Positions 9,189-11,020 of a stretch of 27,751 bases of DNA are shown piece after piece. Source of the stretch: a virus (lineage: Duplodnaviria > Heunggongvirae > Uroviricota > Caudoviricetes); the IMG/VR virus record IMGVR_UViG_2879742664_000010. One strand, 5' to 3'. The notes beneath the pieces are model-generated. The model was not told the origin of the DNA and made no database searches. It saw only the letters and a list, made by a program, of their open reading frames with translations. Numbering within the stretch: position 1 is the stretch's first letter; each line of letters starts with the position of its first letter. Position numbers and translations under genes: made by a program.

Positions 9189-9380
9189 ATGAAATCCATG
9201 GACAAAATTTCAACGGGCATTGCCTACGGCACCTCCGCCGGCAGTGCCGGCTACTGGTTTTTGCAGTGGTTGGATCAGGTCAGTCCATCACAGTGGGCTG
9301 CGATTGGTGTGCTGGGAAGTCTGCTTCTGGGGCTTCTGACTTATCTGACGAATCTGTATTTCAAAATAAGAGAAGATTGA
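9189..9380 (+). CDS. S: Phage 21 S21-like pinholin, truncated by IS600 copy 3 (last ~8 residues replaced; the stop codon is the first three bases of the IS)
   Basis: [63 protein letters not shown]; dual-start MKSM motif; SD GGAGG upstream; ORF ends at TGA at 9378..9380. Confidence 0.8.
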
Positions 9381-9441
9381 GGTAGCCTGAGTTTAACGGA
9401 CACTCCTTCCTGAAATAGAATGGCATCAGAAGGAGCTAATA

Positions 9442-9744
9442 ATGAGCAGAAAAAACCAACGTTACTCTAAAGAGTTCAAAGCCGAAGCTGTCAGAACGGT
9501 TCTTGAAAATCAACTTTCGATCAGTGAAGGCGCTTCCCGATTATCCCTTCCTGAAGGCACTTTAGGACAATGGGTTACCGCCGCCAGAAAAGGGCTCGGT
9601 ACTCCTGGTTCCCGCACGGTGGCTGAACTGGAATCTGAAATTCTGCAACTGCGTAAGGCGTTAAATGAAGCTCGCCTTGAGCGAGATATATTAAAAAAAG
9701 CAACAGCGTATTTTGCACAGGAGTCGCTGAAAAATACGCGTTAA
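9442..9744 (+). CDS. IS3-family transposase OrfA, IS600-like
   Basis: Identical 100-aa ORF. Confidence 0.9.
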   Translation: MSRKNQRYSKEFKAEAVRTVLENQLSISEGASRLSLPEGTLGQWVTAARKGLGTPGSRTVAELESEILQLRKALNEARLERDILKKATAYFAQESLKNTR

Positions 9745-9779
9745 TCGAACAATGGCGACAACAATTTCCCATTGAAGCG

Positions 9780-10598
9780 ATGTGTCAGGTATTTGGTGTA
9801 TCCAGGAGCGGTTATTACAACTGGGTACAGCATGAACCCTCAGACAGAAAACAAAGTGATGAGCGGCTAAAACTGGAGATTAAGGTGGCACATATCCGCA
9901 CTCGCGAAACATATGGAACCCGGCGGCTCCAGACGGAGCTGGCAGAGAATGGCATCATCGTTGGTCGTGACCGACTGGCACGTCTTCGTAAGGAGCTAAG
10001 GCTACGCTGTAAGCAGAAACGCAAGTTCAGAGCGACTACGAACCCGAACCACAATCTGCCAGTTGCGCCAAATCTGCTGAACCAGACGTTCGCTCCTACA
10101 GCACCAAATCAGGTCTGGGTGGCGGACCTGACGTATGTTGCCACACAGGAGGGATGGTTGTACCTCGCTGGCATCAAAGATGTTTATACGTGCGAAATTG
10201 TCGGCTACGCCATGGGAGAGCGCATGACAAAAGAGCTGACAGGTAAAGCCCTGTTTATGGCGCTCAGGAGCCAGCGCCCACCTGCCGGGCTAATCCACCA
10301 CTCTGATCGAGGTTCACAGTACTGCGCATACGATTACCGGGTCATACAGGAGCAGTCTGGTCTGAAAACATCAATGTCGCGTAAAGGTCACTGTTACGAC
10401 AACGCTCCGATGGAAAGCTTCTGGGGAACGCTGAAAAATGAGAGCCTGAGCCACTATCGTTTTAATAACCGGGATGAAGCCATCTCAGTAATACGGGAAT
10501 ACATTGAGATTTTCTACAATCGTCAGCGTCGTCACTCTCGTCTGGGGAATATCTCCCCGGCAGCCTTCAGGGAAAAATATCATCAGATGGCTGCTTAA
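9780..10598 (+). CDS. IS3-family transposase OrfB, IS600-like
   Basis: Identical 272-aa ORF. Confidence 0.9.
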   Translation: MCQVFGVSRSGYYNWVQHEPSDRKQSDERLKLEIKVAHIRTRETYGTRRLQTELAENGIIVGRDRLARLRKELRLRCKQKRKFRATTNPNHNLPVAPNLLNQTFAPTAPNQVWVADLTYVATQEGWLYLAGIKDVYTCEIVGYAMGERMTKELTGKALFMALRSQRPPAGLIHHSDRGSQYCAYDYRVIQEQSGLKTSMSRKGHCYDNAPMESFWGTLKNESLSHYRFNNRDEAISVIREYIEIFYNRQRRHSRLGNISPAAFREKYHQMAA

Positions 10599-10643
10599 AA
10601 AAAGAACAAATGGTAGTGTCCGCTATTGCCAGTACACCTCATG

Positions 10644-11020
10644 ATGGACTGTGTGCAGTTTGTTCCCGATCCGAAAAAACGCAGCATCCGGAGACCGCTT
10701 GTTGAAGAGGATATTGAAGAAATCATTACCCGTCTTAATCTGCGTGCGGAGGTCTTTAAGCTGCATGTGGATTTTTTCGCTACCGTCGTCAGCTAGATAT
10801 CCCCCCGCGTTATCTCGACCCCGACAGACCGTTCGGGGTGGTGGATTACGTTAATGTTCCCCGTACCATTGCGACCGTTATCTCCTCCGGTAAGGCTTCA
10901 AAAGCTGAACTGGATTCTGTCCTTGGTGTGCAGGACTTATGGGATCTGCTGGAAATAATTCATGTGGATGCCCATAACGAACAGGTGATACAGGAGAACA
11001 GAAATGGCGCAGGTACTTGA
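10644..11020 (+). pseudogene. Remnant of a tail assembly chaperone pair (lambda G/GT-like) with a conserved -1 slippery site; 5' end removed by IS600
   Basis: Zero frame MDCVQFVPDPKKRS...KLHVDFFATVVS* (10644..10796); the -1 frame continues from the heptamer T TTT TTC to 11020, overlapping the start of the tape-measure-like gene. Confidence 0.45.

Follow-up and report, generated by a model that had tools for sequence, protein, structure and literature searches.

How did a single intact copy of IS600 come to join the front of a phage lysis gene to the back of a phage tail gene? The question arises in a stretch of 27,751 nucleotides of caudoviricete DNA (IMG/VR virus record IMGVR_UViG_2879742664_000010), analysed at its full length and referred to here as the window. 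The window carries four copies of the insertion sequence (IS) IS600, and the third of these, copy 3, lies between a holin gene and a tail assembly chaperone gene, both of them truncated. A preliminary description, made from the letters of the window, had proposed that copy 3 lacks a target-site duplication and implies a large IS-associated deletion. Our analysis indicates that copy 3 very probably sits on an IS600-bounded deletion within one prophage, extending from holin codon 63 to chaperone codon 85. The window itself is a decayed, ipaH-carrying Shigella prophage in which lambdoid early and lysis genes are combined with contractile-tail late genes. Its 100%-identical match, with identity measured over 16,156 bp, is CP026811.1, tabulated as the chromosome of Shigella flexneri serotype 6 strain 64-5500 (PMC9455713).

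IS600 copy 3 and the missing interval

The four elements have the features of the IS600 family: a length of approximately 1264 bp, imperfect terminal inverted repeats starting TGAGGT, and the two-ORF (open reading frame), −1 frameshift layout of the IS3 family, with an orfA (HTH) of 100 aa and an orfB (DDE/rve) of 272 aa. In identical copies elsewhere the two are called as one fused product of 385 aa bearing HTH_Tnp_1 and rve domains, and a 99.3%-identical copy is labelled in RefSeq as 'IS3-like element IS600 family transposase, programmed frameshift'. Copies 1 to 3 are identical to one another and copy 4 differs from them by 1 nt. The ends of the element were fixed by comparing the copies: all four start TGAGGTAGCC behind differing flanks and finish CACCTCA, the terminal repeats TGAGGT.../...ACCTCA pair exactly, and the right end reads ...GTACACCTCA.

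With the ends fixed, the 3-bp flanks of copies 1 to 4, read in the orientation of the IS, were GGC/GGC, CTA/CTA, GAT/TGA and TTG/TTG. Since each of the three perfect matches has a chance probability of 1/64, the 3-bp duplication is a genuine property of IS600 in this DNA; copies 1, 2 and 4 carry it and copy 3 does not, its flanks agreeing at 0 of 3 positions. The contrast drawn in the preliminary description was therefore borne out. Two shifts of the boundary of copy 3 were considered and rejected. The first, in which TGA would be a repeat through the first three bases of the IS, conflicts with the ends defined by the three other copies and by the inverted repeats. The second, in which an extra T precedes GAT on the right, conflicts with the ends of the other copies and with the fact that TGATGGAC is native chaperone sequence. 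Correcting the boundaries thus yields no duplication. The flanks are each native to the gene they belong to: GAT is holin sequence, and TGA is chaperone sequence (...GAA A|TG ATG GAC).

An intact relative of the prophage shows what the joint replaced. The right flank was matched at 99.7–99.9% identity in only 9 of 5,426 complete Escherichia coli genomes. The relative used for reference is the ipaH3 prophage of E. coli FDAARGOS_943 (NZ_CP065615.1; locus L001), in which the left flank lies 15 kb upstream of the right flank on the same strand. This prophage begins with int, xis ... YdaE, Rha, DUF1391, cI-like, cro-like and YdaT genes followed by replication genes; continues with Q-region genes, four tRNAs, the holin, an endolysin struck by a separate IS600, and a spanin; and ends with terS, terL, portal, head genes, sheath, tube, chaperone, tape measure, baseplate and fibre genes and ipaH3. 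Per-locus alignment revealed that the window is collinear and co-oriented with it from YdaE to ipaH. Specifically, window positions 8457–9377 align to L001 6846–7765 at 99.0% and positions 10641–14054 to L001 22900–26314 at 99.65%; L001 7766–22899, located at 843765–858898 of NZ_CP065615.1, has no counterpart in the window. Holin and chaperone are both full-length in FDAARGOS_943, in the same order and orientation as in the window and 15.1 kb apart, and therefore are not natural neighbours. The undeleted layout also occurs in seven IMG/VR proviruses (L026–L032) at 99.4–99.8% identity. It is this layout that upholds an IS600-associated deletion.

In FDAARGOS_943 the breakpoints, at the positions matching window 9377 and 10641, are 15,134 bp apart. 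Subtracting the unrelated IS600 within that interval together with its duplication, CAC (1,267 bp), leaves 13,867 bp of phage DNA comprising 17 whole genes and parts of two others. The block encodes a signal-arrest-release (SAR)-type endolysin, an Rz-like spanin, an Ant-like protein, both terminase subunits, the portal, head morphogenesis, capsid and neck proteins, the sheath and the tube. The endolysin, spanin, terminases, portal, major head protein, sheath and tube were identified using PHROGs. All the gene classes that the preliminary description expected between holin and chaperone are thus found there in the relative. It had suggested a comparison with phage 21-like or Shiga toxin (Stx) phage late regions; the holin is of the phage 21 type, and the late genes that were lost are those of a contractile-tail phage, marked by a DUF3383 sheath, and not the siphovirus module of phage 21 or Stx phages. 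Lacking lysis, packaging, head, most tail and replication-to-Q genes, the prophage would be expected neither to lyse its cell nor to form particles, and it retains its ipaH cargo.

Table 1. Features at the joint and copies of IS600, in window coordinates.
Feature	Position	Strand	Remarks
IS600 copy 1	1035–2298	−	1264 bp; duplication GGC; partner of copy 3 in sister-genome inversions
IS600 copy 2	3578–4841	+	1264 bp; duplication CTA
Truncated P21-S-type (class II, pinholin-like) holin	9189–9380	+	Codons 1–63 of 71
Left flank GAT of copy 3	9375–9377	+	Native holin sequence; no repeat on right side
IS600 copy 3	9378–10641	+	1264 bp, intact; orfA 9442–9744, orfB 9780–10598; flanks GAT/TGA, no duplication
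Right flank TGA of copy 3	10642–10644	+	Native chaperone sequence
Tail assembly chaperone, 3' remnant	10642–10796	+	Last 50 codons of 134; first 84 codons gone
Slippery heptamer T_TTT_TTC	10772–10778	+	In frame, 22 nt before chaperone stop; putative programmed −1 frameshift site
−1 frame extension ('T'-like part)	10779–11020	+	PHROG 3976; separate 60-aa ORF (10838–11020) in relatives; overlaps tape measure start
Tape measure/lytic tail protein with SLT domain	11004–13025	+	673 aa in relatives; 561-aa ORF here
IS600 copy 4	22748–24011	−	1264 bp; duplication TTG; in tail-fibre gene

Spread of the scar and later inversions

The deletion scar is old and common to many Shigella genomes rather than private to one strain. 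The exact 63-aa truncated holin was found in 83 contigs and in 92 index blocks, of which 23 have contigs >1 Mb, under the name 'phage holin [Shigella]'. The exact 51-aa chaperone remnant was found in 293 index blocks and 241 contigs, likewise named [Shigella]. At least seven independent complete assemblies carry the two junctions on a single IS600 (L003, L004, L005, L008, L009, L016 and L017), and CP055124.1, from another serotype 6 strain, is among the genomes with this arrangement. Among the complete E. coli genomes, neither junction was found. The left joint is also present in CP000036.1, with more IS damage downstream; we take this sequence to be that of Shigella boydii Sb227. Serotype 6 groups with S. 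boydii in clade S1/C1 (PMC7373316), and the distribution of the scar agrees with that grouping.

In other sister genomes the flanks are re-paired. The pairings a/c', c/a', b/c' and d/b' are the expected products of inversion between copies 1 and 3 and of other inversions, examples being holin-IS600-YdaE and Rha-IS600-chaperone (L007, L010, L011, L012, L014, L015, L018, L020 and L023). The locus between window positions 1035 and 10641 is an inversion hotspot. Because copy 1 keeps an intact duplication in the window, the arrangement seen there is ancestral to the inversions of the sister genomes. Across approximately 20 loci, the holin flank was never paired with the remainder of the holin gene, nor the chaperone flank with the 5' part of the chaperone gene.

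Routes to the deletion

The preliminary description left two routes side by side, an IS600-mediated adjacent deletion and recombination between two copies. The end product is compatible with both, and the sequence does not separate them. We favour recombination between two direct copies, with a probability of roughly 0.55. In this sequence of events, two IS600 copies of the same orientation would have inserted, one in the 3' end of the holin gene with GAT as its duplication and a second in the chaperone gene with TGA; the latter may have been a local hop from the holin-site copy. RecA-dependent recombination between these identical 1264-bp copies would excise the interval and one IS600, so that a single hybrid element would remain, its left flank derived from one insertion and its right flank from the other. 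The joint shows the signature of such an event: it holds one IS that lacks a duplication, and its flanks keep the order and orientation of the undeleted relative. IS600 is dense in the window, with 4 copies in 27.7 kb, and since copies 1 to 3 are 100% identical, they would be good substrates for recombination. Deletions in Shigella are ordinarily explained by recombination between homologous copies of an IS (PMC7373316; PMC8072062). It is this explanation, together with the density of identical IS600 copies and their recombination at this very locus, that makes the route preferable.

Several observations weigh against recombination between two copies. The two-copy intermediate predicts two junctions, one between the right end of IS600, GAT and the 3' end of the holin gene, and the other between the 5' part of the chaperone gene, TGA and the left end of IS600. 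They were sought in the 5,426 complete E. coli genomes, IMG/VR, the JGI metagenomes and the GTDB species representatives, the latter three by exact pattern, and the intermediate was found in none of them. Among the E. coli genomes, a synthetic holin-side junction gave 10 matches at ≥80% coverage, none of which was the predicted joint, and a synthetic chaperone-side junction gave zero. The 10 matches were two-piece alignments spanning 600–750 bp and were rejected as an IS600 within the lysozyme gene of O121 and of other E. coli that make Shiga toxin (STEC). The predicted chaperone::IS600 proteins (86 or 99 aa) were absent, by exact look-up, from approximately 15 billion proteins. Nor can internal polymorphisms reveal a hybrid element, copies 1 to 3 being identical. 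Finally, in evolved E. coli lines, 14 of 83 movements of IS150, another member of the IS3 family, were duplication-less deletions beside a resident copy (PMC11708052), a figure indicating that the transposase-driven route is common in this family. Control scans bear on the DNA searches: in IMG/VR, the real right junction was found once, in an inversion variant (L023), and the real left junction not at all. The collections hold few Shigella genomes, so their negative results are weak.

A transposase-mediated adjacent deletion is the strongest competitor, and we consider it a possible, if not the leading, account. A single resident IS600, originally sitting in either the holin or the chaperone gene with a duplication of its own, would have attacked a second site on the same molecule by intramolecular transposition, through a tandem IS-dimer junction or by aberrant strand transfer. 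In one step and with no stable second copy, one original flank would be kept, a new one gained and the interval lost, giving the identical end product: one intact IS that lacks a duplication and whose flanks are collinear with the ancestor. The failure to find a two-copy intermediate favours this route, with the reservation that the searches had low power for Shigella. It has a close parallel in the IS150 'IS-del' deletions of the E. coli long-term evolution experiment (Ngan et al. 2024, PMC11708052), where a 3-bp-duplicating IS3-family element stands without a duplication at the edge of kilobase-scale deletions; all 14 events, in three lines, arose beside a pre-existing copy. In those lines, however, the resident copy was documented at earlier time points, whereas no ancestral state with a resident copy was recovered here for either breakpoint. 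A neighbouring IS3-family element in the window, an ISEc52-like element at 6432–8457, also lacks a duplication (flanks ACC/CAT) and bounds a second gap of approximately 8.7 kb. Against an adjacent deletion, no feature of the sequence sets it apart from two-copy recombination, and the sister genomes, with their inversions of this locus, demonstrate active homologous recombination between copies of IS600.

A broader version of the transposase-driven account is that a one-step IS600 deletion occurred in nature and became fixed at the base of a Shigella lineage including S. flexneri serotype 6 and S. boydii, the loss of lysis and virion genes locking ipaH into the chromosome. We regard this as unlikely. 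Taken with the duplication-less ISEc52-like element 1 kb upstream, it would make IS3-family adjacent deletions, and not homologous recombination, a main route by which Shigella prophages are grounded. Deletions dependent on the IS-excision enhancer (IEE) also involve IS3-family elements, including IS629 and IS600 in STEC, and adjoining deletions of a few bp to >40 kb are known (PMC9397093; PMC9943667). Those events accompany excision of the IS, and IEE is carried by SpLE1-like elements of STEC. IEE-type excision fits poorly because copy 3 is retained intact with exact ends.

The remaining explanations fare far less well than either recombination between two copies or adjacent deletion. It is improbable that nothing was lost and that the lysis-to-tube block was instead relocated in the chromosome by at least two IS600-IS600 inversions or translocations. 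Flank-swapping inversions are common at the locus and Shigella genomes are highly rearranged (PMC8072062). However, a single inversion would have reversed the chaperone flank, and because both flanks keep their ancestral order and point the same way, several inversions would be an unparsimonious way to relocate the block. The approximately 20 related loci hold no trace of the block within 10 kb, the reciprocal junctions occur in no collection searched, and no record exists of the reciprocal truncated chaperone protein.

Slightly less probable still is the landing of IS600 on a pre-existing deletion joint or in a naturally short phage variant, with an aberrant or decayed duplication. The right flank reads T-GAT-GG, so that GAT does recur one base from the end of the IS, but TGATGGAC, together with the preceding A, is uninterrupted native chaperone sequence in which an extra T is unneeded, and the other three copies end exactly at ...CCTCA. 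This explanation demands that the IS landed precisely on an earlier illegitimate joint, and an IS-free holin-chaperone joint was seen in no collection searched. An assembly artefact, in which a 1.26-kb repeat was collapsed or contigs were mis-joined across IS600, has next to no chance of being correct: IS copies are classic sites of mis-assembly, and the homopolymer frameshift of the tape measure gene may stem from a sequencing error, but the same pair of junctions recurs in many independent complete genomes and in drafts from different projects, and the truncated proteins in 83 and 241 contigs.

The truncated genes, other elements and significance

On the left of the joint, the truncated holin lacks the C-terminal KRKAARGE of the intact 71-aa, WP_000839570-type protein, a loss of the approximately eight codons first described, and its stop codon, TGA (9378–9380), is formed by the first three bases of IS600. 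The intact protein matched Pfam family PF04971, 'Bacteriophage P21 holin S', with E = 1.1e-35 (121.8 bits against a cutoff of 26), and the 63-aa form carries PF04971 in precomputed annotation. The N-terminus, MKSM..., offers a Met1/Met4 dual start. In the intact relative, the next gene overlaps the holin stop, falls in PHROG endolysin families and encodes a Gly/Ala-rich, SAR-like N-terminus, which we assume resembles that of R21. These features support the assignment to the phage 21 S holin family (class II, probably pinholin-like), in keeping with the S21-like label initially given. The phage 21 lysis cassette of S21 pinholin and R21 SAR endolysin shares the PF04971 holin, the MKSM dual start and the SAR-like endolysin N-terminus of the intact relative.

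Lysis cassettes appear to have been struck repeatedly by independent IS600 insertions. The endolysin gene of FDAARGOS_943 carries its separate IS600 at L001 7901–9164, flanked by the duplication CAC, and IS600 also occurs in the endolysin gene downstream of the same holin family in several STEC genomes, including O121:H19.

Upstream of the holin, a tRNA cluster at 8586–8896 comprises a tRNA with a CAT anticodon (tRNA-Ile in RefSeq relatives), Arg-TCT, Thr-TGT and Gly-TCC; the fourth is Gly in the window and in FDAARGOS_944 and Val in the FDAARGOS_943 prophage. The segment from the tRNAs to the holin matches a lambda-like siphovirus prophage (FDAARGOS_944) at 100% identity and the contractile-tail ipaH3 prophage at 99.0%, identities that show mosaic exchange of the lysis module.

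On the right of the joint, the chaperone remnant is called as a 51-aa ORF (MMDCVQ...) that starts at 10641, since the final A of IS600 and the flanking TG restore the native ATG (10641–10646). The full protein of 134 aa matched PHROG 1932, 'tail assembly chaperone', with E = 3.2e-59; it had no Pfam match. In the relative, the gene order is tube, chaperone, 60-aa ORF and tape measure. The heptamer T_TTT_TTC is kept in 79 of 80 relatives (59–100% aa identity), and 78 of the 80 have an open −1 frame of 67–80 codons after it. Conservation of both down to 59% identity justifies the earlier 'G/GT-like' label and supports a putative programmed frameshift. Lambda-type G/GT chaperones likewise combine a conserved −1 slippery heptamer with an overlapping ORF that precedes the tape measure gene, although no Pfam match links the chaperone here to lambda gpG. 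The likeness has further limits: holin and chaperone are both fragments in the window, and where phage 21, lambda and Stx phages have a siphovirus late module, the prophage here is of the contractile-tail type, with a DUF3383 sheath and an E217 gp32-like tube.

The gene following the chaperone is the expected tape measure gene. Its product matched PHROG 2013, 'lytic tail protein' (E = 9e-246), and PHROG 2276, 'tail length tape measure protein' (E = 1e-29, residues 1–607), with an SLT domain (PF01464) at residues 493–598. The frame is broken near 12621–12624, where the window has GGGG and relatives have GGGGG, a 1-bp loss. The 561-aa ORF also occurs in the 100%-identical CP026811.1 locus (L016), and most sister genomes encode 673 aa; the loss could be genuine or a homopolymer sequencing error.

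Two further sets of insertion elements lie in the window. The ISEc52-like element is 93.6% identical to a copy in FDAARGOS_944, is interrupted by an IS1 (approximately 7537–8304, 9-bp duplication CAGCGAGGC) and stands in place of the replication genes through the Q-region genes of the FDAARGOS_943 prophage. It is a second candidate for an IS-bounded deletion. An inverted segment at 6432–8457 was considered and rejected, as per-locus alignment resolved it into the ISEc52-like element and the IS1 within it. Downstream of the tape measure gene, a 2506-bp IS66-family element is nested in an identical copy of itself at 14055–19074: the inner copy occupies 14937–17442, with an 8-bp duplication (AAAACGGC), and the outer halves lie at 14055–14936 and 17443–19074. 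The inner copy and the reconstructed outer copy differ by 1 nt. Sister genomes differ in IS66-family gene content at this position, with one tnpA-tnpB-tnpC set in three (L014, L015 and L018) and an extra tnpA-tnpB in three others (L004, L005 and L009), and the nested region therefore varies between strains.

At the right end of the prophage, ipaH lies within 25940–27751 on the minus strand; the loci considered with it were L001 34721–36001 and L025. FDAARGOS_943 carries this gene, under the annotation ipaH3, as the terminal cargo of a complete prophage that is integrated between yebY and pphA. The prophage remnant of the Shigella genomes adjoins ybhA-modCBA, and its integrase is truncated. The route of chromosomal ipaH integration was termed uncertain in a published analysis (PMC8072062); the intact FDAARGOS_943 prophage suggests plain phage carriage.

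The event described here is ordinary IS-driven prophage decay, of a well-known kind and with no new mechanism. It does not differ in kind from the IS deletions and prophage decay documented for Shigella (IS1, IS2, IS4, IS600 and IS911; Hawkey et al. 2020, PMC7373316; Seferbekova et al. 2021, PMC8072062): an expanded IS disrupts genes and borders the deletion, neighbouring copies mediate inversions, and the prophage lies beside a chromosomal ipaH. Those studies treat deletions in aggregate, and the literature searched yielded no description of the scar from holin codon 63 to chaperone codon 85. Duplication-less, IS-bounded deletions are to be expected in IS-laden Shigella genomes. The junction sequences and the 63-aa and 51-aa truncated proteins are usable as lineage markers; the scar is a clean, datable marker of the immobilisation of an ipaH prophage in one Shigella lineage, at a locus that displays continued re-shuffling by IS600-mediated inversion.

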